Positions 42,176-58,914 of a stretch of 59,260 nucleotides of DNA are shown one piece after another. The translations under genes and the position numbers were made by a program. The notes beneath the pieces are model-generated. The model was not told where the DNA came from. It saw only the letters and a program-made list of their open reading frames with translations, and ran no database searches. How positions within the stretch are numbered: the first letter of the stretch is position 1; every line of letters begins with the position of its first letter. Origin of the DNA: Ktedonobacteria bacterium (GTDB lineage Bacteria; Chloroflexota; Ktedonobacteria; Ktedonobacterales; JADMIN01); assembly GCA_027307065.1 (NCBI GenBank), contig DAHUXT010000001.1, positions 1-59,260 on the forward strand, read 5' to 3'.

Positions 42176-44338
42176 TTAGGCGCGAATCTCATCCACCTGC
42201 GAGAGGTTGATGAACAGGTCGCAGCTCTGCCGCAGGATCATCGCGGCGGCATCCTCGAAGGCGGCCGCCTCGACGCGTACGCCGTGGTCAGAGCAGTATT
42301 CCAGCAATGGCAGGAAGTCGCTATCACCGCTGACCAGCACGACCGTATCGAGCGCGCCAGCATCTACCAGCCGCACGATATCCATGCACAGGTCAAGGTC
42401 CATATCGGCCTTGCGCGCGCCACTGGCGAACGTTTTGTAGTTCTTGGTGGTGATGCGATAGCCGACGCCCTTCACTGCCGAGAGGAAAGTCTGCTCGGCG
42501 TGCGGGTCGGGATTGGTCGGCGCGTAGGCGTGCGCCCGAATCAGCCGGCGATTGCCGCGCAAGAAGTCGAGCAGCCTCCCGAAGTCGATGCTCATCCGCT
42601 GATTGCGCGCGGAATAGAGCAGATTGGCGACATCCACAAACACGCCGATGCGCTCAGTTGACGGGAACGCTGGCAGCGCCACCGTCATGCTGGGTGGATA
42701 CTGCTGGCGGCGTAGCTCGTTGAGCAGACGGTCGGTCTGTTGCGCGATTGAATTGGTCAGGACAGCGCCCAGCTGATTGGATGACATTGGCGGCACATCG
42801 CCACCGCGCTCATTCCGGCGCACACGCGGCAACGGCTCGTGCAGCGGACTGGCGACACCAGACGACTGTGGGCCGAAGCCCCGCGCGAACGAGGGCTCTG
42901 GCGCGCTGAACGGACTCGCGGGCTCCTGCACATGTTGCTGTGCGGACGCCATGCTCCACCGCGACTCTTGCTGGCGGGCGGCTGGCGCTGGCTGGCGCGA
43001 GCCTCGCGGGCGCGGCGCGGGGGTATACGGGCTGTAGCCCGGCTCTTCAAAGAAATCGGCGCCCTCCGCGCCCGAAAGGTAGCCGTTGCTCTGGTCGTAC
43101 TCGGTGGCATACGACACCGCCGTTTCAGGAGCGGCATACGGCGCGGGCAGATGTGGCGAGCGTGATCCGTTCTGATCATGCTGCTCATCGCCTTCAACCT
43201 CGCCCGACTCGGCATCCTGAGTGCGGCTGCGACCGCGACCACGGCCACGGCGGCGGCGGCGGGCTGCCCCCTCGCGCTCGGCCTGGTCCTCGTGCTCGGC
43301 GGCATCGGCGGTAGCCGTGGATGTGCCACTCACCGGCTCCGTGTCAACGATGACCGCCTCATGATCTTCTGGTGCTTCGAGCGTTTCGAGCGTTTCGAGC
43401 GCACTGGATGTATCCGCACTATCCGTCGATTCCGGCGTGATGACGGCGATCACTGGCGCAGCATGCTCAGGACTTTCCACCGTCTTCACCGGCTCGATTG
43501 CCTCAGCACCCTCAACGGTCTCGGCGAACTCGCCCGGCTCGGTCGCGGCGCTGGGCTGAGTCTCTTCTGCGCCACTTGTCGCCTCAGTCACGGCTGTGGC
43601 GGGTGTCGTCATCAACGTGGGCGGAGTGGCGCGCCATCCACTTAGCCGCTCGGTGCGCGTTGGCGTCTGCGTGGCGGTTGCCTGGACTCGTGGGCGGTCG
43701 AAGCGATAGCGGCGCTGCTGGGTTGTTTCCTCGCGCGGCGCTAGCGTTGCCTCTGTAGATGGCTGTTCTTCAGCCTGAGGCTGCGTTGCCTGGGGAGACT
43801 GCGCCGACAGTTGCCTGGCGCCTTCGAGCGCATCCAGATGCGCCAGAATCGCGGCGTCTAGCGGCAACGGCTCAGGAGCAGGCAGCGGTATCGCCAGCGG
43901 ATTTTCCTCGCTGGTCGCGTGCGTGGGTGTCTCTGTCGCCGAGATTACCGGAATGAGTTGTACGTCTTGCGACTCTGGCTTGCCACTGCGGCGGCGATTG
44001 CTGCCTCCTCGCCGTCCGCGCGCGGGAGGACGCTTGGTAGTCTCGGCAGCTATCTCAGTGGCGACAGGTGCGACAGGTGCGCTGTGCGCTGTTTCTGCCG
44101 CTGGCGCGGATGCGGCCACGGGCTCGGCGATAGGGGTCGCGGGCTGTTCGTCGTGCTGCTCCCTGGGTTCTTGCTGTTCTTTCTGCTCTTTCGCCTGCCG
44201 TCCGCGGCTCGATGTATGGCGGCGGCGCGGCGGCCGGGAGGATGTCTTCGCGGGTGTGCTTTCCTGGGCACCAGCGGTGGCTGTGCCTTCAGTAGACCCA
44301 GGCGTCGGCGCCATGGGGTCACGTTGATCTTGCGTCAT
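42176..44338 (-). CDS. NYN-domain (LabA/PIN-like) putative RNase with about 550-aa disordered N-terminal region
   Basis: ATG at 44338 with AGGAG upstream. C-terminal IGVFVDVANLLYSAR...DMDLDLCMDIV...VVLVSGDSDFLPLLE matches the NYN layout. The N-terminus is E/T/A/P/R-rich with an RRRRRGRGRGRSR box. Confidence 0.8.
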   Translation of the reverse strand: MTQDQRDPMAPTPGSTEGTATAGAQESTPAKTSSRPPRRRHTSSRGRQAKEQKEQQEPREQHDEQPATPIAEPVAASAPAAETAHSAPVAPVATEIAAETTKRPPARGRRGGSNRRRSGKPESQDVQLIPVISATETPTHATSEENPLAIPLPAPEPLPLDAAILAHLDALEGARQLSAQSPQATQPQAEEQPSTEATLAPREETTQQRRYRFDRPRVQATATQTPTRTERLSGWRATPPTLMTTPATAVTEATSGAEETQPSAATEPGEFAETVEGAEAIEPVKTVESPEHAAPVIAVITPESTDSADTSSALETLETLEAPEDHEAVIVDTEPVSGTSTATADAAEHEDQAEREGAARRRRRGRGRGRSRTQDAESGEVEGDEQHDQNGSRSPHLPAPYAAPETAVSYATEYDQSNGYLSGAEGADFFEEPGYSPYTPAPRPRGSRQPAPAARQQESRWSMASAQQHVQEPASPFSAPEPSFARGFGPQSSGVASPLHEPLPRVRRNERGGDVPPMSSNQLGAVLTNSIAQQTDRLLNELRRQQYPPSMTVALPAFPSTERIGVFVDVANLLYSARNQRMSIDFGRLLDFLRGNRRLIRAHAYAPTNPDPHAEQTFLSAVKGVGYRITTKNYKTFASGARKADMDLDLCMDIVRLVDAGALDTVVLVSGDSDFLPLLEYCSDHGVRVEAAAFEDAAAMILRQSCDLFINLSQVDEIRA
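43376..43402 (-). repeat. 9-nt in-frame tandem repeat (ttcgagcgt x3) inside the NYN-protein disordered region
   Basis: Read directly. Encodes LETLETLE. Confidence 0.85.
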
Positions 44339-44705
44339 ATTGTCTCCTGCTTCTGCCGCAAGCAGGGGCGCAGAGTGGTGTGGCGGGGAGGCTGATCGAT
44401 GACGTAGGGGGAATCCGGCAAGTCGCAACGCCGCGGTGTATCTCTGATGCGCTGTGCCTGAAGTAGTTCTGCTGGCAGCCAGCGCGGATGCGCATTATCG
44501 TCGCGTCAGTCGTATATTCCCAGGCCGGTCTCAACCCAACCTCAACCCTCTCCCCACTACCCTTCCGGCATCCCGCCATCCCTGGCGGAAGCGCAACCCT
44601 GTGCGGGCTTGTCTTTCTGTCTGTGCGCCGCCGGAGCAGCACATCAGGAACGATTTCAGAGCCTCCCGTCGCCGCGCATACACACGTGAGCGACGGTAAC
44701 CAATG

Positions 44706-45437
44706 TCATGAACGATGCTCTGAAGTCAGCGATTGTGCAGTATTCATGTGTTCGGGATGTCTCCCGTTGCTCTGCGTCCCCTGCGCGGGCGAGCCTTCGA
44801 CGGTCTCAACCGCGTCAACCGAGGACGATTGGCGCGCTGAACGCGAGAGCTTCAGCCAGACGGCGACGATACGCTGCACCGAGGTGAATACACTCGTTAC
44901 CGCAAGCAATAGGAGCGTCCAGATGAGCCACTGCCCGGCTCCCAGGATGAGTCCCGCTGCCAGCACCAGCACACGCTCAGGCCGGGCCATCAGACCACTC
45001 TTCATTTCCAGGCCCAAACCCTCAGCCCGCGCGCGCACATAGCTGACCATGAGCGACCCCAGTCCGGCGATGTACGCCAGAGCCAGAGCCCATGCCTTTT
45101 CCGTTGATGGCGGCAAGCTGTTGACGTAAAGGATGATGCCGAGGATGATAATGCCCTCAGAATAGCGGTCCAGCGTCGAATCGAAGAAAGCGCCAAAAGT
45201 CGTCTTCTGATTCCGCACGCGTGCCAGCGCCCCATCCACCATGTCAAACATTCCAGCAATCAGTAGCATCACGCCCCCCAGGCGCAATGACCCCATCGCC
45301 AGAATCGCCGCCGTAATCGCGTTGAGCAGCAGCCCGATAAGCGTTGCCATGTTTGGAGTCATGCCAATCGCCGCCAGCGGCCAAACCACTAACTCGGCGA
45401 TACGGCGCGCGGTTTGTTGTATCCGTGGCCCAAACAT
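44706..45437 (-). CDS. CDP-alcohol phosphatidyltransferase, phosphatidylinositol-phosphate synthase (PgsA1)-like
   Basis: Complete family motif D-x2-DG-x2-AR-x8-G-x3-D-x3-D in FDMVDGALARVRNQKTTFGAFFDSTLDRYSE. Multi-TM. Genomic context includes ino1, pimA-like and patA-like genes. Confidence 0.8.
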   Translation of the reverse strand: MFGPRIQQTARRIAELVVWPLAAIGMTPNMATLIGLLLNAITAAILAMGSLRLGGVMLLIAGMFDMVDGALARVRNQKTTFGAFFDSTLDRYSEGIIILGIILYVNSLPPSTEKAWALALAYIAGLGSLMVSYVRARAEGLGLEMKSGLMARPERVLVLAAGLILGAGQWLIWTLLLLAVTSVFTSVQRIVAVWLKLSRSARQSSSVDAVETVEGSPAQGTQSNGRHPEHMNTAQSLTSEHRS

Positions 45438-45641
45438 ACCTGCTCCTCGTTGCGTGCTGCTTCTATTGTACCACTACCTGTCCCACACGTATGCGAATCC
45501 AGGCACTCGTTTGCCAGAGCGATTCGCGCCAGCGAAAAGATGCGCTTATGGCCCATCAGGCCCAGCCTCGCCAGCCCTTTGCGGCGTTGGCTGTCTCTTG
45601 TTGGCTGTCAATTGGCCATTTCCGACATCGCCGATACGGCG

Positions 45642-46844
45642 CTATTCCAGAATTGGTAGGACCGCAGCCGTCGGACGCGCGAGCTGTCTGCCCCATGTGG
45701 TGGCGTACTCCGCGCGCAGTTCACGATAATAGTCGAGCACCTGCCCGGCAATATGCTCCCAGCCAAAATCCTTGGCGCGCTCGCGGGCGGCATACGCCAA
45801 TCGCCGACGTTCGGCCTCGTCATCCAACAGATGACAGATCGCCCACGCAAGCTGCTCGTGGCTCTTGGGCGCGACCAGCAATCCATCGCGCTGATTACGA
45901 ATCACCGAGCGGAACCCCGGAATATCTGAGGCTACCACTGCCCGACCAGAGGCCATCGCCTCCAACAATACGATACCCTGGCTCTCGCCGCCGGTATTAG
46001 GCGCGCAGAAGACGTCCGCCGTCGCATAGAGCGACGGAAGCTGCTCCGCTGGAACGCGCCCCAAAAAGACAACATCGCGCCAGTCTGTCTGGGCCACATA
46101 CGTCTGGAATCCCACCCGCTGTGGGCCGTCGCCGCCGATCAGAAAACGGGTATTGGGATAGTGCTGGCGAATGATGGGAATCGCTCGCAGCAGATATTTC
46201 AACCCTTTGCGCTGCTCCAGTCGGCCGAGAAAGACGACATTGAAGCGCCCGTCATTGTATTGCGCGAGCGGAGGCACAGTGGTGCTAAAGCGTCCCAGAT
46301 CGACCCCGTTGGGAATAACTCGGTACTCGCCAGGGAAGAACCGTGAGACGAACTCCACCGCGGCTGGCGAGACAGCGATGCGCCCATGCAATCGCCGGAA
46401 GTAGCGGCCCAGTAGCGGCTTGGCGGAATAATACGCCCAATCACTCGTCGAGGTAAGACTGCGCCGCGCCCAGGCGTGGAACGTGCCGACGTAGAGTGTG
46501 TTGGTGATGCCCGTCAGATGGAGCATCGTCAGGGGCAGGGCGGATGCCAACGGCTCGTGCATATGCAGCACGTCGAATTCTTCGCGCCGCAACAGCGAGC
46601 GAATGCGTCCGCGCCAGTCTGGGGCCACCGCTACCCGCGCAATCGAGCCATTGACACGCACCGGAGCCGCCCATCCCAACTTGTAGACGCCATATTCCAC
46701 CTGCCGCGCACGTGAGCCAGTCGCGGGGGTGAGGATGCGCACGGTGTTGCCCCGGCTGCGCAACTCGGCGGCCAGGTGCGCTATGTGATCCTGCACGCCC
46801 CCTGGATAGCTCCAGTCGTAGGGCGAAACAAGTCCAATTTTCAA
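45642..46844 (-). CDS. GT4 glycosyltransferase, PimA (phosphatidylinositol mannosyltransferase)-like
   Basis: The N-terminus MKIGLVSPYDWSYPGGVQDHIAHLAAELRSRGNTVRILTP closely parallels the PimA N-terminus. C-terminal EX7E region (GGESQGIVLLEAMASGRAVV). Confidence 0.8.
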   Translation of the reverse strand: MKIGLVSPYDWSYPGGVQDHIAHLAAELRSRGNTVRILTPATGSRARQVEYGVYKLGWAAPVRVNGSIARVAVAPDWRGRIRSLLRREEFDVLHMHEPLASALPLTMLHLTGITNTLYVGTFHAWARRSLTSTSDWAYYSAKPLLGRYFRRLHGRIAVSPAAVEFVSRFFPGEYRVIPNGVDLGRFSTTVPPLAQYNDGRFNVVFLGRLEQRKGLKYLLRAIPIIRQHYPNTRFLIGGDGPQRVGFQTYVAQTDWRDVVFLGRVPAEQLPSLYATADVFCAPNTGGESQGIVLLEAMASGRAVVASDIPGFRSVIRNQRDGLLVAPKSHEQLAWAICHLLDDEAERRRLAYAARERAKDFGWEHIAGQVLDYYRELRAEYATTWGRQLARPTAAVLPILE

Positions 46845-46999
46845 TGCGCGCCTTCCTGTCGGTTCATGATATCGAGCGATGGTGCTCGATGCTCTTTCGT
46901 GTTCGTCTGCTTCTGCGTCGTCTGCGAGACCGTGGCTCGATGGCTACATCCATGATGCAAGGCTCTGCGCACCCTCCGGCGCCTGGCACCGGGACACCC

Positions 47000-47917
47000 T
47001 TAGCGTACCACGCTAGCCGATGGGCGCATGCGGGTGCTCCGCTCGAGGGCGAACCCACCGATGCGCGCCATCGCGGTGCGGCGTGGCTCGATCTGCTCGT
47101 GCGTCGCTCCACCCCCATATACCATGCGATGTGAGACGAATGCAACATACTCTCTGGCTTGCCAGTAGCGCCCCTGCGGCGATGTCTGTCGCAACTCGAC
47201 CGCTCGGCGGAAATCCGCGGCGTTGCGGCCTGGAAAGAGCGTGCGCGCGCAGCCAACCGCCGTCGTCGTGTGCGCGTCGCTGCTGCCAGTCTCAGCCCAA
47301 TGATAGACCGTGCGCGCAAGTGACATGGCAATGCGCGACGAACCGATGCCCGCGAAGCTGCCATTGAGTGTCTCGATGCCATCGGGGTGCAGGTCGGGCT
47401 GTCGCAACAGCCGGTTCATCACCTTGCGCTGCACGCTATGGCGGAAGACCCGATTAAACGGATGGGCGATGATTGCGAGGCCGCCTTGCGCGTGTACCAG
47501 TTCAATACTACGCTCGATGCTCAGGCCTGGCGGGACACGCTTTTCCAGGAAGAGGGCCAGCATGTGTCCCTCGCGCGTGCTGATTTCTTCGCCGACAATC
47601 ACCTCAAAGGGATAGCTGCGGCGAGCCGCAAGGTCGCGGGCACGCAGCGCGCCGTCGATGGTGTCGTGATCAGTGATGGCGATCACATCGAGTGGCGTGT
47701 AGGTCTCGACAAAGTTCAATACCTCGTCCACCGAGCCAGTGCCGTCGCTGTAGTTCGTGTGCATATGCACATCGGCGAGGCCGTCGCCTGGGATGCCACC
47801 GCGCGCGATGTCGATGATTTCGTCGCGCTGGTAGGTGGCTGCGATCGTTTCTTCAAAAGTATGTTCGGCATCACCAGACGGTGTGCTATGCAGTCGCTTG
47901 TTGGAATCGCTCTTCAT
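47000..47917 (-). CDS. PHP-domain metal-dependent phosphoesterase
   Basis: ADVHMHTNYSDGTGS, VIAITDHDTIDG, IIAHP and SSDAH blocks of the polymerase/histidinol-phosphatase fold. Confidence 0.8.
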   Translation of the reverse strand: MKSDSNKRLHSTPSGDAEHTFEETIAATYQRDEIIDIARGGIPGDGLADVHMHTNYSDGTGSVDEVLNFVETYTPLDVIAITDHDTIDGALRARDLAARRSYPFEVIVGEEISTREGHMLALFLEKRVPPGLSIERSIELVHAQGGLAIIAHPFNRVFRHSVQRKVMNRLLRQPDLHPDGIETLNGSFAGIGSSRIAMSLARTVYHWAETGSSDAHTTTAVGCARTLFPGRNAADFRRAVELRQTSPQGRYWQAREYVAFVSHRMVYGGGATHEQIEPRRTAMARIGGFALERSTRMRPSASVVR

Positions 47918-47971
47918 GCGTTGTGTCTTTCCTTCGCTTTCCTGTCTGTGTGCTCGTCATGGTCGTAACGC

Positions 47972-48979
47972 TCACACGGATGGGATCGCGGATTGCTGCT
48001 GGCGGGTAGCCGCTGGCGACATGTGTGTTGCCGTCGATATTTGTTCGGTCATGTGGTATTTGCCGGGCTGGTCGTCGGTCTCCCAGACCGTTGCCAGCGT
48101 TGAAACCCACTGTTCTGGATGCGCCGAGATCAGCCTTTCCAACTGCTCGACATAGAGGTGTACCGCGTGAGAGGTGTCTTCTTCGGTACGCGCGCGCGCG
48201 GCTGCGTTGCCAGCACCTTCGGTACCCGTATGCCCCGGCTGAACGTTCAGCGGAATGACACCACCGTGTGACCTTCCCCGGCCCAGTCGCCACGAGAACG
48301 ACGCGACAATCGGCGCGCCGGTTTTAAGCGCCAGGGCAACCGCCGACGTTGGCAGCCGCGCTGGCTCGCCGAAGAATGGCGTCTGGATGCTCGACCCCAC
48401 GATGAAGCGGTCGGCGGCGATCAGCACCATCTCGTTCCGTTTGAGCGCGTTCATCATCTCGCGCAGGGTCTCGCGGCTATCCGCCGGAAACAGGCGCATG
48501 TTGTGATGCGCGCGCGTCTTGCAGAACCAGGTGAAGAGCTCCTCTGGCTGCATACGTTCGGCAGGTGTAGTCATCAGGTAGCCGAGCGCGCCCAGCCGCG
48601 ACGCGCCATATTCGAAGTTGCCAAAGTGGGCACTCACGACGATGAGCCCGCGTCCCTGCTGCATCGCCTCATTGATAATCTCTTCGCCCTCGGTTGTCCA
48701 TCCCGCAAGCACCTGCTTGTCGGTCAGATGCGGCCCCCGCAGGAAGTCTACATAGTTGAGCACCATATTCTCGAAGACGCCGCGCGTCGCGTGATGCAGG
48801 GCCACAGGATCGCTGGCGAGGGAAGGCACGTGGCGCAGATTGCGCTCCACCCGGCGGCGAAGTTCTCCCCCGAAGGCCCAGATGAGCCTGCCGATGAGCC
48901 GGGCGCTGGGATACACCAGCCACAGGGGAATGAATGGAATGATGGTCGCCGCCAGGCGAAACGCGCGCAACTTAGCCAT
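47972..48979 (-). CDS. lipid A biosynthesis-type (LpxL/HtrB/PatA family) acyltransferase, copy 2
   Basis: N-terminal membrane anchor. Catalytic-region motif SAHFGNFE (HxxxxD/E). Its start ATG at 48979 overlaps the stop of copy 1 by 8 nt. Confidence 0.8.
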   Translation of the reverse strand: MAKLRAFRLAATIIPFIPLWLVYPSARLIGRLIWAFGGELRRRVERNLRHVPSLASDPVALHHATRGVFENMVLNYVDFLRGPHLTDKQVLAGWTTEGEEIINEAMQQGRGLIVVSAHFGNFEYGASRLGALGYLMTTPAERMQPEELFTWFCKTRAHHNMRLFPADSRETLREMMNALKRNEMVLIAADRFIVGSSIQTPFFGEPARLPTSAVALALKTGAPIVASFSWRLGRGRSHGGVIPLNVQPGHTGTEGAGNAAARARTEEDTSHAVHLYVEQLERLISAHPEQWVSTLATVWETDDQPGKYHMTEQISTATHMSPAATRQQQSAIPSV

Positions 48980-50030
48980 TGGATTGCTCTCCCGGAGCCA
49001 GGCTCGCTGCCGCGGTCTGGAGTCGCCTGGACGCCATGTGCTCGGATGATGACGGCGCGCCGCCTTCGGGCCAGAATCGGCGGAACATTTCCCATTGGTC
49101 AGGATATTGCCGGATAACTTCCTCCATGGACTCGAACATTTGCTGTGTCAACCGTATCGTATCGGCACGTTTGTCGCCAGTATGCTGTGGGAAGATGGGG
49201 GACATTGCCCCTAAGTAATACGTACTGGAATAGTTTTTGTCGTAACGGCAATAGCCGGGGAGAATTGTCGCGCCTGATTTCAGTGCGAGTTGCGCGATTC
49301 CACCAGGAACATAGCAGGTCTTGCCGAAGAACGTTATCGGCACGCCCTCCTCTGGCGGCACTGGCTTATCGACGGCGACGGCTACCACCTTATTCTCTTG
49401 CAAGGCGCGCAGGATCCGGCGTGGCGTCTTCTCGATGCGAATGAGGTTCAGGCCAAACTTGCCGCGCTGGTCCATTACCAGCTTATCCATGCGCGGGTCA
49501 TCAAACGATTCGACGATGAGATCGATGGGTACATGGCTGCGTACCATAACGGCGGCCACATCCCACGCACCGAAGTGAAACGAGACGAGGATAACCCCCT
49601 TGCCAGGGGCCAGTGCCTGATCAATGTGGTTGAATGCTCCCGGCGCTGGCGTGACGTCTTTCATGCGCGCGAGCAACTCGTCGAAGGTCGCATTGGGAAG
49701 ATAGAAGAAGTCAGAAATATAGCGTCCGTAATTACGCCAGGAGTCCCGCGCCAGCCGCCGCGCGCGCGGATCGTTCTCCGGAACGCCGAGCACCTGGGCC
49801 ATATTGGCGATAGTCACGCGCCGCTTGGCTACCCACGCATAATACACCAGCACAGTAATGGGGCCGCCAACGGCCAGCCGTACCGGACGTGGCACGCGAC
49901 CGGCGAGCCAACTGGCAAAACGGGTAAGGTAGTAGACCAACGTCTCGCTCCCTCGGTGCATCCTCAGCAGGCGGAGCAGCGAAAACACACAGGATTGATT
50001 GCGTTTCCCCTCGGCTGACCCGGCGCGCAT
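48972..50030 (-). CDS. lipid A biosynthesis-type (LpxL/HtrB/PatA family) acyltransferase, copy 1
   Basis: Motif SFHFGAWD. An alternative ATG at 49961 was verified. Confidence 0.8.
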   Translation of the reverse strand: MRAGSAEGKRNQSCVFSLLRLLRMHRGSETLVYYLTRFASWLAGRVPRPVRLAVGGPITVLVYYAWVAKRRVTIANMAQVLGVPENDPRARRLARDSWRNYGRYISDFFYLPNATFDELLARMKDVTPAPGAFNHIDQALAPGKGVILVSFHFGAWDVAAVMVRSHVPIDLIVESFDDPRMDKLVMDQRGKFGLNLIRIEKTPRRILRALQENKVVAVAVDKPVPPEEGVPITFFGKTCYVPGGIAQLALKSGATILPGYCRYDKNYSSTYYLGAMSPIFPQHTGDKRADTIRLTQQMFESMEEVIRQYPDQWEMFRRFWPEGGAPSSSEHMASRRLQTAAASLAPGEQSNG

Positions 50031-50143
50031 ATCTGCCGAGCCTGCCGGGGAGAGAGTAACAGGAGTTGTTACGCAAGCGCAACATCTCTACGCTAAATGG
50101 GTGAGCCGTAACCCCTCCCCGACACGGAGAGGGGTCGCGTCAA

Positions 50144-51373
<1,230 letters not shown>

Positions 51374-51430
51374 ACGTTTCCGGGCCTGCCCGGATGGGAT
51401 GATGGCTGAACAACCACTGTTAAGAGCTGC

Positions 51431-51880
51431 TTAGAACTGCCGGGCTGGCCGGGTGCCATTAGGCTTGCCAGTTGGCTTGCCGGCTGTTGTGCCTGCTACG
51501 CCAGGCGCGAGCAGCGATGCGTCACCGGGATCGCCCGCTGGCGAGAGTGCCGTCGTCGAAGCCGCTGGAGCAGGCTCGCCACTGATGACGTCTCCCAATC
51601 GCCGCAGGCTCTGCTGACACCGCGCGACATCGAGCCAGCAATAGACCTGCCGCCCCTGCCGACGCGTGCGTACCAGCCCATTGCGCCGCAGGATTCCCAA
51701 ATGCCACGAAACCAGTGGCTGACTGATCAGCAACTGCTGCGAGAGATCGGTAACGTTCACCTCTTGGCTGTTGGCCAGAACACGCACGATGTTCAGGCGC
51801 ACCTTGTCGGCCAGCGCGCGCGTTAATTTTTCGAGCTCGGTGTAGTCTTGCCAGCCATCCGGTGTGCCTGTTTGTGTCAT
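51431..51880 (-). CDS. ArsR/SmtB family transcriptional regulator
   Basis: ATG verified at 51880. HTH block LADKVRLNIVRVLANSQEVNVTDLSQQLLISQPLVSWHLGILRRNGLV. Lies 57 nt upstream of ino1 on the same strand. Confidence 0.8.
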   Translation of the reverse strand: MTQTGTPDGWQDYTELEKLTRALADKVRLNIVRVLANSQEVNVTDLSQQLLISQPLVSWHLGILRRNGLVRTRRQGRQVYCWLDVARCQQSLRRLGDVISGEPAPAASTTALSPAGDPGDASLLAPGVAGTTAGKPTGKPNGTRPARQF

Positions 51881-51970
51881 TCGCTCCGCCTTCGGCCGAC
51901 GAGGAGGAGCACGTAATCCGCGCCATCGCACGACATTGTGCTGTTCTCTCGCCAAATACATCAAGCCATG

Positions 51971-52034
51971 CTATATAAGCAAATCCTATATAAAGGATCG
52001 CTATATATGTACCTGACCGGCTCTCAGTTGTCAA
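51971..52034 (-). promoter_or_regulatory. candidate arsR/ino1 promoter-operator: TTGACA -35 plus three CTATATA boxes at exact 15-bp spacing
   Basis: Minus-strand TTGACA at 52029..52034, a 17-nt spacer, then TACATA at 52006..52011. sCTATATA boxes at 51971, 51986 and 52001 overlap and follow the -10. Confidence 0.45.
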
Positions 52035-52207
52035 GGGACAGTTAACCGCGGCTCGTGATTGGGGTCATCCGCAGACGCGTCCTGTCCATTGGGGGAGCCG
52101 CATCCCTGCCGGAATGACGGGTGCGATTGCCTGCCATGCCTACTAGAATGAGGGAAGAATAGGGCGACGCACTCTCGGTATTTTGATGAGATTGCGACAC
52201 AACAGCG

Positions 52208-52738
52208 ATGACACATGGCGAGACGAGGCGTACTATGCAGGGTTTCTACTGGCTGATCGAGGATATGTTGGCTGGATGCGCGCGACCGGGTGGAAGCATG
52301 ACACGGCGCGATGCTTTGCCGGATGACGCGGGCGCGCTTGCGGCGCTAGACGCCGATCTGGCCTGGCTGCGCGAGCGAGGCATCGGCGCGGTGCTCTCGA
52401 TGACCGAGACGCCGCTCTCCGCTGAGGCGCTCGAACGTCACGGCCTGGAGTCGCTCCATGTGCCGGTGGACGATCTGACCGCGCCCACGCCCGAACAGTT
52501 CGACCAGGCGCTGCGTTTCATCGACTGGCAGCGTGTCCGTGGGAAGCCTGTCGTCGTCCATTGCAAGATGGGCCAGGGACGCACTGGCGTGGTGCTGGCG
52601 GCCTATCTGGTGCGAACGGGCGCGACCCCCGCACAGGCTCTGGCGCGGGTACGGGCAGTCTGCCCCGGCGCGGTGGGAGTCTCTGAACAGGAACGCGCGC
52701 TCGACGCCTTTGCCATTCGCCGCGACTGGATTGTCTGA
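52208..52738 (+). CDS. dual-specificity / PTP-fold cysteine phosphatase
   Basis: Active-site loop VVHCKMGQGRTG (CX5R), with an upstream conserved D in VPVDDLTAP. An alternative start lies at M10 (52235). Confidence 0.8.
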   Translation: MTHGETRRTMQGFYWLIEDMLAGCARPGGSMTRRDALPDDAGALAALDADLAWLRERGIGAVLSMTETPLSAEALERHGLESLHVPVDDLTAPTPEQFDQALRFIDWQRVRGKPVVVHCKMGQGRTGVVLAAYLVRTGATPAQALARVRAVCPGAVGVSEQERALDAFAIRRDWIV

Positions 52739-52770
52739 TGGAGCGTCTGATGGAGCGTCTGATGGATGCT
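52735..52770 (+). repeat. 12-nt tandem repeat (ctgatggagcgt x2 plus ctgatggatgct) beginning at the phosphatase stop codon
   Basis: Read directly from the sequence. Confidence 0.9.
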
Positions 52771-52918
52771 CTGACGCGCTTGCTCTCCTGACGTCTCCTT
52801 GAAGGTTCGCGAAATTTCGGATACCATGGCAGCACACCGTGCATCGCATTCACGGCGCAGGCGATCCGGCTAAACGTGGCACGCTTCGTCTGACGAGGAA
52901 GTAGAGAATCAGAGACTG

Positions 52919-54013
52919 ATGTATGCATCCATTCTAGCCGGTGGCAGCGGGACTCGCCTCTGGCCCTTGAGCACACCAGAAACCCCCAAACAGTTCCTCC
53001 GGCTGATGAGCGATCGCACGATGCTGCAAGAGACCGTCGAGCGTGTTGCGCCATTTGTTGCTCCTGACCACCTCTACGTCGTGACCTTCGAGCGCTATCG
53101 CCAGTCCGTCGCCGAGCAACTGCCCGCGCTGCCCGCCGAGCACATTCTGGCGGAGCCACTGGGCCGTGGGACCGCCGCATCCATTGGCCTCGCCGCCACG
53201 CTCATTGCCGCGCGCGAACCGACCGCCACCATGGCATCCGTCCATGCCGACGCCGCGATTACCGATGTTGAGGGATTTCGTCGCGCGCTCGCGTTTGCCG
53301 AGCAGGTGGCGCGCCAGGGGTATCTCGTAACGCTAGGCATCACGCCGACCTACGCGGAAACCGGCTACGGCTACATTCAGGCGGGCGAGCCGATGGCTGC
53401 CTCGGGCGATCTGACCGCGTACCGTGTCAGCCGATTTGTCGAGAAGCCGCAGCGTGAAGTGGCAGAGGAATACGTGCGCGCAGGCCACTACTCGTGGAAT
53501 TCCGGAATCTTCCTGTGGCGAGTAGATCGCATCCTCGAAGAAATGCGCCGCCACGTGCCGCAGATCGCCAGCGTACTCGACGAGATCGGCGCCGCCGCTC
53601 GACACACCGGAGGACGGATGACGGCGGAGGTTGAGCAGGTGATGCATCAGGCCTGGCAACGGCTGACCGAGAATGTAACTATCGACGTAGGCATCATGGA
53701 GCGCGCCGACCGTATGGCCGTCATCCCTGTCTCGGTCGGCTGGAATGACATCGGAAGCTGGGCGCAGGTTGCCACACTGCACCCCCAGGATGAAGCAGGC
53801 AACGTGATGGTTGGTCTGCAGGCGGATGACTGTCTGCGCGTGCAAACAGATGATACGCTGATCTTCAGCACCACTGGCCGGCCTGTGTCTACCGCCGGGG
53901 TCAAGGGATTGGTCATTGTCGATACGCCCGACGGTGTGTTGGTATGTTCCAAGGAACACGCGCAATTGGTGAAAGACCTGGCCGAACGCGCAAAACAGCG
54001 CCAGCAAGGCTAG
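52919..54013 (+). CDS. manC: mannose-1-phosphate guanylyltransferase
   Basis: N-terminal ILAGGSGTRLWPLS...PKQF nucleotidyltransferase signature. 364 aa, with no C-terminal isomerase domain. Confidence 0.85.
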   Translation: MYASILAGGSGTRLWPLSTPETPKQFLRLMSDRTMLQETVERVAPFVAPDHLYVVTFERYRQSVAEQLPALPAEHILAEPLGRGTAASIGLAATLIAAREPTATMASVHADAAITDVEGFRRALAFAEQVARQGYLVTLGITPTYAETGYGYIQAGEPMAASGDLTAYRVSRFVEKPQREVAEEYVRAGHYSWNSGIFLWRVDRILEEMRRHVPQIASVLDEIGAAARHTGGRMTAEVEQVMHQAWQRLTENVTIDVGIMERADRMAVIPVSVGWNDIGSWAQVATLHPQDEAGNVMVGLQADDCLRVQTDDTLIFSTTGRPVSTAGVKGLVIVDTPDGVLVCSKEHAQLVKDLAERAKQRQQG

Positions 54014-54015
54014 AT

Positions 54016-54056
54016 CCATCGGTGGGCGCTTGCCGATGGGATATCTTTCTCATTTC
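54016..54056 (+). terminator. possible intrinsic terminator after manC
   Basis: Stem ccatcgg / ccgatgg (54016..54022 and 54033..54039) with a 10-nt loop, followed by the T-rich gatatctttctcatttc. Confidence 0.4.
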
Positions 54057-54185
54057 AGAACGAGATGAGACATCGTCGTATCTCACAGCATGCTATACTG
54101 AGCACGCAACGGATGCGCGATTGTGGGATGTGACAGCGGGGGGCAGATCGCAGGCACGTCTGCGGCGAGAGGCACGAGAACGACC

Positions 54186-54974
54186 ATGGCCAAGTCCAGA
54201 GTGACGGCAACAAACCGCCTTGCCAACGTGATCGAAGTGGTTGAATTGGGTCGGCGCACGGGCCTACTTTCCGCGGAGCGTGATGGCAACGGACTGGAAG
54301 AGGGTGAGATCTATTTTGTCTCGGGGCATCCGGTCTATGCCGCTCTCGGGCAACTCACCGGCCGCGAGGCGCTGAATATCCTGATTCGCTGGGGTGAGTG
54401 CCGCTTTGCCTTCGAGACATCGGCGCAGCGCCCTATCCCCAATGTCTCCGGAGTATTGCCCGCCGTCGACAACAACGGCTCCCCGTATGGTGTCAGCACT
54501 TCCTACAATAATGGCCAGCCACCCGAGCCACCGCCGCAACAGCCCACGTCAAGGCCAACACATCCAAGTGGCGCCAGCGGCGCTGGCTGGGGCTATCGAG
54601 GCAGCGCGCCCAATATGATGCCGGGTATGAATCCCAACACGCCTATCATGCCAAATACTCCCAATCCACCGAATTATGGCAATTCTGGTATTTGGAACCC
54701 CTCCGACCCGCCTTCCTCGCCCGCGAGTTCTGGCTATCGCTCGCCATCGAGGCAACCATTGCGCGCCGAGCACGATACGCCGCGGCGCACGCCAGATGTG
54801 CGCGACTTGAACACGCTGGTGGCAACCTATAGTCTCTCGCGAGGACATCGGACAGTCCTGCTGCTGGCAAACGGGCAGCACACGGTGGGCGATATGGCGC
54901 GACTTTCCGCGAAGTCGGTGGATGAGGTCCTCCAACTGCTGAGCGACCTGAAGGGCTTCGGGCTCATCTTTTAG
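54186..54974 (+). CDS. DUF4388-domain protein with Pro/Asn/Gly-rich linker and C-terminal wHTH-like module
   Basis: ATG verified at 54186. The N-terminus LANVIEVVELGRRTGLLSAER...GEIYFVSGHPVYA...GREALNILIRWGECRFAFE matches the DUF4388 pattern. Confidence 0.65.
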   Translation: MAKSRVTATNRLANVIEVVELGRRTGLLSAERDGNGLEEGEIYFVSGHPVYAALGQLTGREALNILIRWGECRFAFETSAQRPIPNVSGVLPAVDNNGSPYGVSTSYNNGQPPEPPPQQPTSRPTHPSGASGAGWGYRGSAPNMMPGMNPNTPIMPNTPNPPNYGNSGIWNPSDPPSSPASSGYRSPSRQPLRAEHDTPRRTPDVRDLNTLVATYSLSRGHRTVLLLANGQHTVGDMARLSAKSVDEVLQLLSDLKGFGLIF

Positions 54975-55200
54975 GAGTGCGAGTAGGGATGCGAATACGC
55001 ATGGAGGATGTGTGGCACGCGGCGGAAAGTCAGCATATCAACGCAACCAGCGCAGTATTTGGTCGTATCCGAAAGTACTGATTTTCACTGAGAACGGCGG
55101 TCAGGCGTGGCACGATAAAGTGCTATCGTCAGCATTGACGCGTCACCGGAATGCCTGTTGATTGCTCGCGTTGAGCGCTCGCGCATTGTCGGTTGAACGA

Positions 55201-55229
55201 TTGAGACAGGTTGCTATTTTGCGATATAT
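55201..55229 (+). promoter_or_regulatory. candidate promoter of the Cache sensor gene (TTGAGA-N17-ATATAT)
   Basis: Hexamers and 17-nt spacer read directly. ATG at 55287. Confidence 0.35.
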
Positions 55230-55286
55230 GGCATCGGTGCCAGCAGACGACGCGCACGAATCCGGCGCGAAGCGAGGTGCTTCTAC

Positions 55287-57464: not shown

Positions 57465-57941
57465 TCATTCCAGCGTCAGCGAGATCGCCTTGCCCATGAA
57501 TTCGCCCTGGGCCGTGCGGGCGGCGCGATCTATCTGAATGTGGAAGGTCGCACTCTCGCCTCTGCGAAGTTGAGAGCGGTCGACGATGCTGCCCTCCACG
57601 TGTAGCACGCTCCCGGTCTGCCGGATGCCGCTGACCCGAATCAGGCGGGTGAACCCCGACCAGATCATCTGGCTCATCGCCTCGGGAGAGCCTGCGTACA
57701 TTGTCTCGGTGATGGTGCCCGTCTTGGTCGCTAGGTCCAGGTGGCCCTCGATCACGTACGTGCAGTAGTTGGGCAGCGGCTTCGCGGGCAACCCCGAGAC
57801 CGCTTTGAAGCTCAGGCTGGCTTTCCTGCCTGTCCCCGCGAGCAATCCCTTGCCCGCGACAATCCCCGTGGCGCCCACTGCAACCGCTGCCGTGCCTGCG
57901 CCCGCCACTGTCAGAAATGTGCGCCGATTCATCGTTGCCAT
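57465..57941 (-). CDS. Tat-signal secreted protein, unknown function
   Basis: ATG at 57941 with AAGGAG 8 nt upstream. Twin-arginine signal MNRRTFLTVAGAGTAAVAVGA. Confidence 0.65.
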   Translation of the reverse strand: MATMNRRTFLTVAGAGTAAVAVGATGIVAGKGLLAGTGRKASLSFKAVSGLPAKPLPNYCTYVIEGHLDLATKTGTITETMYAGSPEAMSQMIWSGFTRLIRVSGIRQTGSVLHVEGSIVDRSQLRRGESATFHIQIDRAARTAQGEFMGKAISLTLE

Positions 57942-57960
57942 GACTTCGGCTCCTTTCTCG

Positions 57961-58914
57961 CTAGTGTGGATTCCCCAGGTAGGGGAAGTCGGAGAGATAG
58001 TCAGTATGCGGGCCAACTTTATCGGTCGTCACGGCTCCATTCGTGACCAGCGCCAGTTCGGCGTCAATCACGTCGTCCGCGAGCTTCCGCCCGTTCAGGA
58101 ACCCAGCCGCACTCGAATAGTCATAGGTGAGGATGTCTGGCAGCAGGATTTCGGCAATGGCTTTGGCCTCTGACGCGGGATGTCCGAACGACGCCAGCGT
58201 ATTGACAAAGCTCGTCTCGAAAAGCGCGCGATCCTGCGTCGGCTCGATGCCATTGAAGGTATTCTTATCCGCGCCGTGGTTGAAGACCGTGTTGATTGCT
58301 GGGCGTCCCATGCGATCCATCTGCGTCCACACGTCGTCGACTTCCTTCAGCACGCGGAACCACACGCCAATCTTGGGATTGGCTCCAAGCGCCGAATTGG
58401 GTACCTCCAGCGCGATGCCGAAGACGTTTTTGTCGATGAAGAAATCGTCTCCGGTAAACTGGAATCCGTGCAGGAACCCGATCAAATCGAAGAAGAAAGG
58501 GTCACTGCGCAGGCCGGCGAAGAACTTGTACGGGCCGGCGGTCGTCACCTGGGGAGTATGACCGAAGGAACACGGCGCATTGTTGATGATGATGCTGCCG
58601 CCACTGTTCTTTCCCGCTGCCACGTTCCCGGTAGCATAATGGACGGTCGCGGTCTGCGCGCCATTCGCGAACTCCGAGAAGCGGTACCGGAACGCCACAT
58701 CGGCTACGGCGTCTCCATTGGTATCGATGCGTAGGTCGTAAATCGCCTGGTGCTCGAACGAATCCGCCAGCGTGGGCGCAAGGGGATTCACATTGGTAAT
58801 AAGAATCGTCTTGCTGGGGTCTCCAGGCTTCTGGAACGCGTAAATATCGGTGATGTCGATGCGCGCGTCCATGTTCGGAGACTGCAGACCTGGTGCGTCC
58901 AGATGATCTGCCAT
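57961..58914 (-). CDS. DUF4331-family protein
   Basis: ATG at 58914 with GGAGG upstream. N-terminal ADHLDAPG...DITDIYAF..P.....ILITNVNPL resembles the DUF4331 opening (H-x-E/D-AP ... D-x-TD-V/I-YAF). Confidence 0.65.
   Translation of the reverse strand: MADHLDAPGLQSPNMDARIDITDIYAFQKPGDPSKTILITNVNPLAPTLADSFEHQAIYDLRIDTNGDAVADVAFRYRFSEFANGAQTATVHYATGNVAAGKNSGGSIIINNAPCSFGHTPQVTTAGPYKFFAGLRSDPFFFDLIGFLHGFQFTGDDFFIDKNVFGIALEVPNSALGANPKIGVWFRVLKEVDDVWTQMDRMGRPAINTVFNHGADKNTFNGIEPTQDRALFETSFVNTLASFGHPASEAKAIAEILLPDILTYDYSSAAGFLNGRKLADDVIDAELALVTNGAVTTDKVGPHTDYLSDFPYLGNPH

Follow-up and report, generated by a model that had tools for sequence, protein, structure and literature searches.

A conserved Chloroflexota gene cluster with a probable role in the synthesis of phosphatidylinositol and an acylated glycosyl-phosphatidylinositol

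The locus lies in a window of 59,260 nt (the whole stretch of DNA that was analysed) from a soil bacterium of the Ktedonobacterales (Chloroflexota), which is not an actinobacterium. An ORF check and profile searches recovered the nine ORFs that a preliminary description had placed here, on the same coordinates and strands and with the domains it had named. Seven minus-strand genes, all in the same direction, encode an ArsR regulator, Ino1, two PatA-like acyltransferases (AT1 and AT2), a PHP protein, a PimA-like GT4 and a PIP synthase; divergent from them are the genes for a CX5R phosphatase and ManC. The features are as follows.

44706-45437, minus strand: CDP-alcohol phosphatidyltransferase (CDP-OH_P_transf, Pfam PF01066), most likely the PIP synthase
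45465-45473, minus strand: promoter-like extended -10 sequence TGgTACAAT; the PIP synthase ATG lies some 30 nt further downstream, after a GAGGAG ribosome-binding site
45642-46844, minus strand: PimA-like GT4 (Glycos_transf_1 and Glyco_transf_4)
47000-47917, minus strand: PHP phosphoesterase (PHP and PHP_C)
47972-48979, minus strand: acyltransferase AT2 (Lip_A_acyltrans)
48972-50030, minus strand: acyltransferase AT1 (Lip_A_acyltrans)
50112-50134, minus strand: GC-rich stem-loop without a U-tract, about 10 nt downstream of the ino1 stop
50144-51373, minus strand: Ino1 (Inos-1-P_synth)
51431-51964, minus strand: ArsR/SmtB regulator
51971-52007, minus strand: putative operator, three TATATAG repeats at 15-nt spacing, then TTGATGTA
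52006-52034, minus strand: predicted sigma-70-type promoter of the arsR-led operon (TTGACA at 52034-52029, 17-nt spacer, TACATA at 52011-52006)
52208-52738, plus strand: CX5R (DSP) phosphatase with the loop HCKMGQGRTG
52919-54013, plus strand: manC, mannose-1-P guanylyltransferase domain without the PMI domain

The starts are those of the longest ORFs, and some are probably too far upstream. For arsR the ATG at 51880 (MTQTG..., 149 aa) is more likely than the listed TTG at 51964, which falls within the operator region. The start of AT1 is probably near 49961, and that of ino1 probably a few codons inside the listed ORF. The AT1 and AT2 ORFs overlap by 8 nt.

The earlier placement of an inositol-phospholipid or PIM-like locus in a non-actinobacterial lineage is borne out by named homologs of the PHP protein and by the titles of related loci. 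At 64-99% identity every PHP homolog with an organism name is from Ktedonobacterales, and the closest related loci are titled as Ktedonobacterales or Chloroflexia MAGs; no cultured relatives are among the loci recovered. Of 38 species-representative Ktedonobacterales loci, 28 have the order ArsR-Ino1-AT1-AT2-PHP-PimA-PIPS and a further 8 are interrupted by contig ends. A second Chloroflexota lineage (14 loci) has the rearranged order ArsR-PIPS-Ino1-AT1-AT2-PHP-PimA and different flanks. Since the seven-gene arrangement recurs in both lineages, it is not due to chance. The PHP gene lies immediately upstream of pimA in every case in both lineages, and at locus L014 the PHP, PimA and PIP synthase genes are still together with the other operon genes absent.

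The regulator matches HTH_5 (39 bits) and NF033788 (77 bits, above the cutoff of 55). Its recognition helix, SQPLVSWH, is near-invariant in both lineages (W is replaced by H in 2 of 22 aligned sequences), and the protein has neither a CXC motif nor a His-rich metal site. The pattern TATATAG-N8-TATATAG has a single site in the window, versus 0.02 expected. In the 200 nt upstream of arsR, 28 loci together have 39 copies of the octamer TTATAT[AG]G, against 2 copies elsewhere in 515 kb; in the second lineage the same position holds ATCAAC-N5/6-(G/T)TT(G/T)ATATAAA. The -35 hexamer is TTGACA or TTGACG in all 38 arsR-upstream regions compared, from both lineages. Retention of ArsR with the locus in both lineages, together with the conserved putative operator, upholds the view that the regulator belongs to the locus. 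Transcription would start from the TTGACA/TACATA promoter upstream of arsR; the TATATAG repeats overlap its -10 and start region, where the ArsR-type protein, lacking a metal site, probably binds as an autorepressor.

The cluster is here not one simple transcription unit, given the extended -10 element of the PIP synthase gene and the strong hairpin after ino1. Nearly every Ktedonobacterales locus compared has (T/A)G(N)TACAAT in the corresponding position, although it is not evident in L036 and L038; judged by its sequence the element would be a promoter, giving the Ktedonobacterales PIP synthase gene an additional start of its own. The stem-loop after ino1 has a minimum free energy of -24.6 kcal/mol (z = -3.4 versus shuffles), and many Ktedonobacterales loci have hairpins of differing sequence at that place. 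Its role may be that of a partial terminator or of a hairpin that stabilises the mRNA, and it may modulate read-through.

The earlier suggestion of a single regulon that takes in the two divergent genes with the seven is not supported. ManC (364 aa) matches PF00483 (148 bits), ManC_GMP_beta-helix and, over profile positions 2-349 of 467, TIGR01479 (304 bits); a terminator-like hairpin follows the gene at 54015-54040. Of the 20 Ktedonobacterales loci whose flanks are long enough, about 14 have manC as a divergent neighbour, at distances that vary, and it is absent from the second-lineage loci. No copy of the operator was found upstream of manC, a frequent but not a constant neighbour. The CX5R phosphatase (176 aa, dual-specificity type) matches Tc-R-P (84 bits) and DSPc (55 bits) in Pfam and 25xa (111 bits), DUSP23 (69) and PTPMT1 (30) in the PDB. 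No loci other than those of the closest relatives (L003-L005 and L007-L009) have its gene, a clade-specific neighbour outside the conserved core; L006 stops short of the gene's position.

Ino1, a myo-inositol-1-phosphate (inositol-3-phosphate) synthase by family, matches PF01658 (130 bits) and, over residues 24-373, TIGR03450 (543 bits, below the curated cutoff of 638), and its identity is 77-93% among Ktedonobacterales and 66-72% in the second lineage. Scores below the NCBIfam equivalog cutoffs are common to all four lipid-pathway proteins. The phosphatidyltransferase (243 aa) ends in a low-complexity tail that begins at about residue 197, and it scores 64 bits against PF01066. The CDP-alcohol motif reported earlier is intact in the alignment (D65-x2-D68-G69-x2-A72-R73-x8-G82-x3-D86-x3-D90). 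The NCBIfam scores are 160 bits for AIP synthase, 150 for BT1523-type PIPS and 135 for PIPSynth, all below curated cutoffs, versus 71 for DIPP synthase (cutoff 580) and 27 for pgsA. The best PDB match is PgsA1 of Mycobacterium tuberculosis (6h5a, 90 bits; AF2299 48, DIPPS 40). By these scores the protein groups with PIP/AIP synthases rather than with DIPP or PGP synthases. On alignment its residues R91, S132, Y133, R135, R137, R152, R155 and R189 match R94, S132, Y133, K135, R137, R152, R155 and R195 of the inositol-phosphate pocket of M. tuberculosis PgsA1 (PMC6506517). The enzyme is most likely a PIP synthase that uses inositol phosphate as substrate.

The PHP protein (305 aa) belongs to a metal-dependent phosphoesterase family and is without a hydrophobic segment. 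It matches PHP (30.7 bits) and PHP_C (33.4 bits) in Pfam, and the CehA/McbA domain (67 bits, below the cutoff of 80), RNase RNM (58) and pAp phosphatase (49.5) in NCBIfam. The metal ligands H51, H53, D58, H84, E110, H152, D214 and H216 are all invariant, and the PHP fold is confirmed, with TM0559, RNase AM and Cv1693 closest to a poor AF2 model (pLDDT 63). Pathway logic and the conserved gene position lead us to propose the protein as a candidate PIP (PI-3-phosphate) phosphatase, and the earlier claim that the locus encodes every step depends on this predicted role. It is unlikely, though worth serious consideration, that the pathway is right but that this step belongs to an unlinked Pgp-type enzyme or, in this clade, to the divergent CX5R phosphatase. 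The PHP protein could then act later, on glycosylated PIP, or hydrolyse a nucleotide by-product. MshA/MshA2 and GpgS/GpgP work in such a two-step manner, glycosyltransferase then phosphatase. Locus L046 of the Thermomicrobiales is consistent with a pair of this kind, as the gene immediately upstream of its PHP homolog encodes a non-PimA GT4. Among characterised PHP enzymes the nearest relatives of the protein are pAp phosphatases and RNase AM, whose substrates are nucleotides or RNA. Moreover, the subfamily is not dedicated to the inositol-lipid pathway, since comparably similar homologs (38-48% identity) are encoded in Patescibacteria, Coriobacteriia and further groups without inositol-lipid genes nearby. 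The CX5R gene shares the intergenic neighbourhood, its product has weak matches to PTPMT1 and PTPlike_phytase, and its P-loop resembles those of the lipid phosphatases PTEN (HCKAGKGRTG) and PTPMT1. However, this gene is missing at the 31 Ktedonobacterales loci beyond the closest relatives and at all second-lineage loci, where the PHP gene is always present, and the PHP gene stays with pimA and the PIP synthase gene even in L014. Also, Pfam and NCBIfam profiles found no PgpA-, PgpB- or PgpC-like domain in the cluster, and pAp is not produced by any reaction of the pathway. The PIP phosphatase of bacteria is known only from Bacteroides, where it is of PgpA type, and is described as unidentified elsewhere (PMC9246714, PMC9385802). 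If the role proposed for the PHP protein is true, the operon covers the phosphatase step, for which an enzyme is otherwise known only in Bacteroides.

The GT4 (400 aa) matches PimA of Mycobacterium smegmatis (2gej/4n9w) over its full length (residues 1-375) at 202 bits; the next structure scores 81 bits, MshA 67 and PimB' 54, and by these scores the protein groups with PimA. Residues Y9, G16, H118, R196, K202, E274 and E282 do not vary among 17 Chloroflexota orthologs. R196, K202, E274 and E282 have donor-phosphate and catalytic roles, and Y9, G16 and H118 are on the acceptor side (PMC13533801). No PimB'-type second mannosyltransferase was found within the window. The guanine-contacting residues D253 and K256, which are required for the activity of M. 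tuberculosis PimA, are absent from this GT4, which has A266 and L269 in their places. This makes the donor nucleotide uncertain, and the proposal of GDP-mannose as donor is not supported by this copy of the enzyme. With D253 and K256 lost, the case for mannose comes down to the adjacency of manC; the transferred sugar is probably mannose, with the adjoining ManC as the source of GDP-mannose, a reading weakened by the change in the guanine loop. That loop is variable among Ktedonobacterales, and this would suit a GT4 that moves a non-mannose sugar from a UDP- or ADP-sugar, giving a glycosyl-PI other than a PIM and leaving manC as a mere syntenic neighbour that serves other mannosylations. The missing second-lineage manC, its variable distance in Ktedonobacterales and the lack of an operator upstream of it point the same way. 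We nevertheless consider this unlikely: UDP- and ADP-sugar GT4s of known structure score at most 81 bits, D253 and K256 are kept in the second lineage, divergent manC adjoins in 14 of 20 informative Ktedonobacterales loci, and a cultured member of the Ktedonobacteria has mannose among its whole-cell sugars (PMC12453558).

Both acyltransferases are of the PatA/LpxL family, and both have counterparts of PatA H126, E149 and R164 and carry an acidic residue in the position of E200 (active-site residues from PMC4792965). AT2 (335 aa) has invariant counterparts of H126, E149 and R164 and an invariant Asp in place of E200; AT1 (ORF of 352 aa) has an invariant counterpart of H126 and again an invariant Asp in place of E200. 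PF03279 scores 107 bits for AT2 and 137 for AT1, and the PIM acyltransferase model PRK07920 125.5 and 124.8 bits, both below the cutoff of 209. PatA in the PDB is matched at 52 bits by AT2, whose block AERMQPEELF resembles AERLKPESLY of PatA, and at 71 bits by AT1 over residues 75-321. The two proteins are 21% identical, and orthologs from the two lineages are 29-31% identical versus 23% in cross-comparisons. AT1 and AT2 are proposed from their sequences to be anciently diverged PatA-like acyl-CoA acyltransferases.

Taken together, we regard it as reasonably probable that the seven genes are a conserved Chloroflexota operon for the de novo synthesis of phosphatidylinositol, part of which is converted to an acylated, PIM1-type glycosyl-PI. 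Ino1, by its family assignment, would form inositol-3-P from glucose-6-P, and the PIP synthase, by family, motif and inositol-phosphate pocket, would join this to CDP-diacylglycerol to give PI-3-phosphate. The cytoplasmic PHP metallophosphoesterase may then remove the 3-phosphate to yield PI. The PimA-like GT4, by homology, would transfer a hexose, probably mannose, to the inositol, and the two acyltransferases, with their conserved active sites, would add one or two acyl chains. That the locus instead makes soluble inositol derivatives (di-myo-inositol phosphate, a mannosylated solute or a mycothiol-like precursor via an MshA-like glycosyltransferase) seems highly improbable. Ino1 does match a model named 'mycothiol_INO1', and a GT4 paired with a phosphatase is reminiscent of MshA/MshA2 and of compatible-solute pathways. 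Against this, the phosphatidyltransferase scores lower with the DIPP synthase model than with the PIP/AIP synthases (71 versus 135-160 bits), the GT4 is far closer to PimA than to MshA, NCBIfam profiles detected no inositol-phosphate cytidylyltransferase, and the operon has two conserved lipid acyltransferases. PI is also a major lipid in the class: the major polar lipids of the cultured Ktedonobacteria member are PI and unidentified glycolipids and phospholipids (PMC12453558).

The region 44706-54013 contains nine open reading frames, exactly as in the preliminary description, seven of them on the minus strand. Domains of the nine proteins were assigned from Pfam and NCBIfam, as follows.

44706-45437, minus strand: CDP-alcohol phosphatidyltransferase (PIPS), 243 aa
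45642-46844, minus strand: GT4 glycosyltransferase (PimA-like), 400 aa
47000-47917, minus strand: phosphoesterase with PHP and PHP_C domains (PHP), 305 aa
47972-48979, minus strand: Lip_A_acyltrans protein AT2, 335 aa
48972-50030, minus strand: Lip_A_acyltrans protein AT1, 352 aa
50144-51373, minus strand: inositol-phosphate synthase (Ino1), 409 aa
51431-51964, minus strand: ArsR/SmtB regulator (ArsR), 177 aa
52208-52738, plus strand: CX5R dual-specificity-type phosphatase, 176 aa
52919-54013, plus strand: mannose-1-phosphate guanylyltransferase without a PMI domain (ManC), 364 aa

The AT1 and AT2 ORFs share 8 nt. The GC content is 0.61-0.62 in windows spanning the locus and ranges from 0.57 to 0.66 over the whole 59-kb window; the base composition is the same as in the remainder and gives no sign of recent insertion. 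Ino1 scores 130 bits on PF01658 and 543 bits over the whole of model TIGR03450, below the equivalog cutoff of 638. No RNA family was matched between positions 44000 and 54500 in a search of Rfam (E ≤ 1).

Scanning a single genome for each species yielded 80 loci, and the nine window proteins served as tblastn queries for their annotation. All are from MAGs, with no cultured species of analyzed lipid composition among them. Homologs 64-99% identical to the PHP protein belong to Ktedonobacterales MAGs wherever the source names the organism, in agreement with the non-actinobacterial host proposed earlier. The order ArsR-Ino1-AT1-AT2-PHP-PimA-PIPS is found, with the same orientation, in 28 of 38 Ktedonobacterales-type loci; a further eight are consistent with it and cut by contig ends. 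Of the two exceptions, L014 (8723-11702) has just PHP-PimA-PIPS, and its 8.7 kb of upstream sequence contain neither an acyltransferase gene nor ino1 or arsR; L030 (7694-12747) is without arsR and ino1 and carries pimA in four frame-shifted pieces. The flanks of the Ktedonobacterales loci are also syntenic, with an NYN gene downstream and DUF4388 and Cache-domain genes beyond manC, and conservation within this order alone therefore proves little. A second lineage, comprising 14 loci labelled Limnocylindria, CSP1-4 or 'Anaerolineaceae', has the order ArsR-PIPS-Ino1-AT1-AT2-PHP-PimA, a PHP protein 42-49% identical to that of the window, and wholly different flanks (MFS transporter, CorA, a giant ORF with PMT domains). 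Since the same seven genes are kept there despite rearrangement and different neighbours, they are regarded as a functional unit. Of the two divergent genes, that of the CX5R phosphatase is confined to the closest relatives (L003-L005 and L007-L009). manC takes the divergent position in roughly 14 of the 20 Ktedonobacterales loci that are informative, and no second-lineage locus has it there. The regulon proposed in the preliminary description is narrowed to the seven core genes, leaving out the clade-specific phosphatase and manC, which is a frequent neighbour only.

By all sequence criteria applied, the phosphatidyltransferase is an inositol-phosphate-using PI-phosphate (PIP) synthase, which would form PIP from CDP-DAG and inositol-3-P. 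It scores 64 bits on PF01066 and carries the complete signature D65-x2-D68-G69-x2-A72-R73-x8-G82-x3-D86-x3-D90, aligned to D68, D71, D89 and D93 of Mycobacterium tuberculosis PgsA1. The inositol-phosphate pocket of the latter is formed by R94, S132, Y133, K135, R137, R152, R155 and R195 (PMC6506517), and all eight have counterparts in the alignment (R91, S132, Y133, R135 with K changed to R, R137, R152, R155 and R189). Among the NCBIfam models the protein scores 160.2 bits for archaetidylinositol-phosphate synthase (NF040950, cutoff 180), 150.4 bits for the BT1523-type PIP synthase (NF052561, cutoff 350) and 134.9 bits for the actinobacterial PIP synthase (NF045883, cutoff 170), missing the curated equivalog cutoff in each case. 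Much lower scores came from the rival families, DIPP synthase (71 bits) and pgsA (27 bits). The best solved structure is M. tuberculosis PgsA1 with 90 bits, followed by AF2299 (48 bits) and the DIPP synthase 4mnd (40 bits). The enzyme, for which grouping with DIPP or PGP synthases had been named as the contrary outcome, therefore sides with the PIP synthases in HMM and structure scores, motif and pocket. Synthesis of DIPP or of compatible solutes was rejected on the same scores (71 against 135-160 bits; 40 bits for 4mnd against 90 for PgsA1). The route to PI via PIP is well documented for Actinobacteria, Archaea and Bacteroides, and the locus very probably makes PI in this way. PI is a major polar lipid of a cultured member of the Ktedonobacteria, beside unidentified glycolipids and phospholipids (PMC12453558), so that PI synthesis is expected in this group.

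The GT4 protein, of GT-B fold, matches PimA of M. smegmatis (2gej/4n9w) with 202 bits over residues 1-375; the next-best structure reaches 81 bits, MshA 67 and PimB' 54. With 202 bits against 81, it falls with PimA and not with the non-PimA enzymes. Residues Y9, G16, H118, R196, K202, E274 and E282 do not vary among the window protein and 16 orthologs; R196, K202, E274 and E282 were taken as the donor-phosphate and catalytic residues of PimA, for which mutagenesis data exist (PMC13533801). D253 and K256 of PimA are strictly conserved in mycobacteria, and the K256A variant is inactive (PMC13533801). Both are replaced in the window protein, by A266 and L269 (loop GRVPAEQLP), and kept in the second lineage (loop GRVSDxEKA); the loop is variable within the Ktedonobacteria. 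PimA transfers mannose to O-2 of the inositol of PI. The window protein is described as PimA-like, with GDP-mannose as a putative donor, and mannose is the sugar that we consider somewhat favoured. The assignment of manC as the GDP-mannose supply, made in the preliminary description, agrees with its frequent divergent position; its absence from the second lineage and the lack of a copy of the putative ArsR operator (see below) upstream of manC speak against it. PimB' was not found at the locus.

AT1 and AT2 score 137 and 107 bits, respectively, on Lip_A_acyltrans (PF03279). The best NCBIfam match of both is the PIM acyltransferase model NF005919 (124.8-125.5 bits, short of the cutoff of 209), and the best solved relative is PatA (71 and 52 bits), with LpxM at 42 and 30 bits. 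Chloroflexota are monoderm. A function in lipid A acylation was rejected, PatA being the best match. Both proteins keep H126 of the PatA charge relay H126-E200 and the acceptor residues E149 (as E or D) and R164; the acceptor residue H284 is lost, and E200 is replaced by an invariant Asp, a position at which the PatA family uses Glu or Asp (PMC4792965). The identity between AT1 and AT2 is 21%. Each is 29-31% identical to its cross-lineage counterpart and 23% to its neighbour, suggesting old paralogs with separate conserved roles. In mycobacteria no acyltransferase has yet been assigned to the second PIM acylation (PMC9490103), and the second PatA paralog is for this reason of interest as a candidate for such a step. 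The authors of PMC9490103 expect the mycobacterial enzyme to be unrelated to PatA. With the results for PIPS, GT4 and the PatA-like proteins, the core of the earlier interpretation as an inositol-phospholipid and PIM-like locus holds, and further glycosylation and acylation of the PI is the probable outcome of the pathway.

In such a pathway PI-phosphate would be released by the PIP synthase and PI would be used by PimA, and a phosphatase would be needed between the two. A PIP phosphatase is known only in Bacteroides, namely BT_1525 of the PgpA family (PMC9246714); outside this genus the enzyme was described as unidentified (PMC9385802), and a literature search on the mycobacterial PIP phosphatase returned nothing relevant. 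No PgpA or other Pgp-type protein was detected by Pfam and NCBIfam among the nine locus proteins. The PHP protein scores 30.7 bits on PF02811 (cutoff 26.4) and 33.4 bits on PF13263 (cutoff 21.3), and the metal ligands H51, H53, D58, H84, E110, H152, D214 and H216 are all invariant. Its NCBIfam domain score, 67 bits, falls short of the cutoff of 80. A Foldseek search with an AlphaFold model, which was poor (pLDDT 63) and built on a shallow alignment, returned PHP proteins and confirms the fold, not the substrate; searching the PDB by profile led to the same proteins. These are remote: RNase AM (TrpH/YciV), the 3',5'-nucleoside bisphosphate (pAp) phosphatase Cv1693, and the uncharacterized TM0559. 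The window protein has their PHP fold and every one of the metal ligands, but is only 17-28% identical, lies below the NCBIfam cutoffs, and is encoded in a context of lipid biosynthesis rather than of nucleotide or RNA metabolism. As it has no hydrophobic segment, it is expected at the cytoplasmic face, where PIP synthase, PimA and PatA would also work. The PHP gene is always directly upstream of pimA, and still stands beside pimA and the PIPS gene in L014. From the pathway logic, the lack of a Pgp-type gene at the locus, the constant adjacency to pimA, and L014, the PHP enzyme is proposed as the PIP phosphatase, an assignment to which we give even chances.

PHP homologs at 38-48% identity are also present in Patescibacteria, Coriobacteriia, Dormibacterota and others, where the neighbours are unrelated. 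Around the non-cluster homologs of Patescibacteria, Actinomycetota and others, the neighbours (Rce1-like, DJ-1, ABC-2 transporter, aminotransferase, radical SAM protein, rubrerythrin) provided no second context in support of a lipid role. None of the PHP relatives that the genome scan retained is a Mycobacterium locus, and the mycobacterial gaps are therefore not directly solved. In a Thermomicrobiales MAG (L046, 8435-10777) a GT4 gene immediately precedes the gene of a PHP homolog 41% identical to that of the window; this GT4 is only weakly PimA-like, and no other inositol-lipid gene is nearby. A fusion of the two proteins was considered and rejected, the long ORF being spurious and the genes adjacent and separate. 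The occurrence of a non-PimA GT4 before a PHP homolog in L046 keeps open a different order of steps, in which glycosylation comes first and PHP dephosphorylates afterwards. In the clade of the window, the PIP phosphatase might alternatively be the CX5R enzyme: it scores 30 bits against PTPMT1, and its P-loop HCKMGQGRTG resembles those of the lipid phosphatases PTEN and PTPMT1, yet it is not conserved with the locus, unlike the PHP protein preferred here. Beside the PHP homolog of a Chloroflexia MAG (L044, 8634-9782, minus strand) an ORF similar to IS605 OrfB/TnpB was observed, with OrfB_IS605 and Cas12f1-like TNB domains.

ArsR is a winged-helix HTH_5 protein (77.4 bits on NF033788, subfamily cutoff 55), and its recognition helix SQPLVSWH is nearly invariant across both lineages. 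ArsR/SmtB metal sites consist of CXC in alpha3 or a His/Asp/Glu cluster in alpha5. In the alignment no such site was found: alpha3 reads EVNVTDL, a His-rich alpha5 is absent, and a single Cys is partly conserved. A promoter is predicted on the minus strand 5' of arsR, with TTGACA (52034-52029), a 17-nt spacer and TACATA (52011-52006), and transcription would start near 51999. It is followed by three TATATAG repeats at 15-nt spacing (52007-51971, minus strand) and then by TTGATGTA. The element TATATAG-N8-TATATAG is unique in the 59-kb window (0.02 expected). In 28 Ktedonobacterales loci, 39 copies of the octamer TTATAT[AG]G fall in the 200 nt before arsR and two elsewhere in 515 kb. An inverted-repeat search of the region upstream of the window arsR found none; the element consists of direct repeats. 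The second lineage carries at the same place TTGACA and then TAG(C/T)ATCAAC-N5/6-(G/T)TT(G/T)ATATAAA, an inverted repeat of the same half-site. These features fit a putative autorepressor with an operator overlapping the -10 element and the transcription start. ArsR resembles the ArsR/SmtB autorepressors in the HTH_5 domain, the first place in the operon, and the repeats over the -10 and start region, and differs from them in the missing alpha3/alpha5 metal site and in the lipid-biosynthetic operon. The listed arsR start, TTG at 51964, lies inside the putative operator region, and ATG at 51880 is the more likely start.

A GC-rich hairpin (50112-50134; -24.6 kcal/mol, z = -3.4) follows the ino1 stop codon, and many relatives have hairpins of similar structure and different sequence at this position. 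Some 30 nt before the PIPS ATG there is an extended -10 element, TGgTACAAT (45473-45465), that nearly all Ktedonobacterales loci keep; the PIPS gene probably has its own promoter in the window, with a predicted start near 45458. The second lineage has PIPS immediately after arsR. The hairpin and the extended -10 element qualify the view of a single operon. In a terminator scan over the locus, sites were no more frequent than in shuffled sequence, and none fell between genes on the minus strand. The stretch from the ino1 hairpin to AT1 (49962-50110, minus strand) reads CTCACCCATTT..GTTGCGC..GCAAC..CTGTTACTCTCTCCCCGGCAG and is kept in L003-L005, although such close relatives make its conservation uninformative; it includes a small hairpin and a weak promoter-like TTGCGC-N18-TACTCT.

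PIMs count as a hallmark of the Actinobacteria, and in M. tuberculosis they serve as drug targets. The early PIM locus of mycobacteria comprises pgsA1 (Rv2612c), patA (Rv2611c) and pimA (Rv2610c) (PMC4792965), and the window locus has the same three enzyme families, clustered and co-oriented. The likeness includes an identical catalytic motif and matched inositol-phosphate pocket of PIPS (K135 to R), a GT4 with PimA as best full-length match, PatA-like acyltransferases with the His/acid dyad, and, in the second lineage, the order PIPS ... AT ... PimA. The window locus differs in belonging to Chloroflexota, in having ino1, a second acyltransferase paralog, PHP, and arsR with its putative operator inside the cluster, in lipid-pathway proteins that score below the actinobacterial equivalog cutoffs, and in the loss of PimA D253/K256. 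It also has no PimB' and no Nudix gene of the Rv2609c type. The cluster BT_1522-BT_1526 of B. thetaiotaomicron is likewise self-contained, with MIPS, PIP synthase and a dedicated PIP phosphatase (Heaver et al. 2022; PMC9246714), and the window PIPS scores 150 bits on the BT1523-type model. The Bacteroides cluster differs in its PgpA-family BT_1525, where the window locus has PHP and no PgpA-like gene, in its regulator, and in leading to inositol sphingolipids instead of glycosylated and acylated PI. No paper was found on PIMs or on PimA or PatA homologs in Chloroflexota or Ktedonobacteria. A conserved PimA/PatA/PIPS operon in Chloroflexota would broaden the known distribution of PIM glycolipids and would give a genetic basis to the routine reports of PI and of 'unidentified glycolipids/phospholipids' from cultured Ktedonobacteria. 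Together, the putative operator and the ArsR-type regulator would make a compact regulatory pair. A wider joint reading is put forward tentatively and with considerable doubt: PIM-type synthesis might be an old trait common to Actinobacteria and Chloroflexota and not an actinobacterial invention, PHP might be the second type of PIP phosphatase in bacteria, not orthologous to the PgpA type of Bacteroides, one PatA paralog might perform a second acylation (e.g., on inositol), and the ArsR-type non-metal regulator might sense inositol-lipid status through the TATATAG-repeat operator.

Several neighbouring genes were also recorded. In the second lineage pimA is closely followed by a convergent, very long ORF (L060, 12976-18642, minus strand, and equivalent positions in 11 other loci). 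The PMT and PMT_4TMC domains of this ORF mark a GT39-like, polyprenol-phosphate-mannose-dependent mannosyltransferase, and it could be an enzyme of further mannosylation or a mere syntenic neighbour. In the window, a 750-aa protein (42176-44428, minus strand) has a C-terminal NYN domain (105 bits) after about 590 aa of low-complexity sequence rich in Pro, Ala, Glu and Thr; the NYN part is kept just 3' of the PIPS gene in nearly all Ktedonobacterales loci and not in the second lineage. Positions 54123-57218 (plus strand) encode a DUF4388 protein with a Pro/Ser/Asn-rich linker and then a 643-aa protein with a Cache-like domain and a Gly/Pro/Met/Gln-rich tail, a pair that comes after manC in many Ktedonobacterales loci. 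A small TAT-signal protein and then a DUF4331 protein (158 bits), whose listed ORFs overlap by 56 nt, are encoded at 57465-58944 (minus strand) and are unrelated to the inositol-lipid locus.
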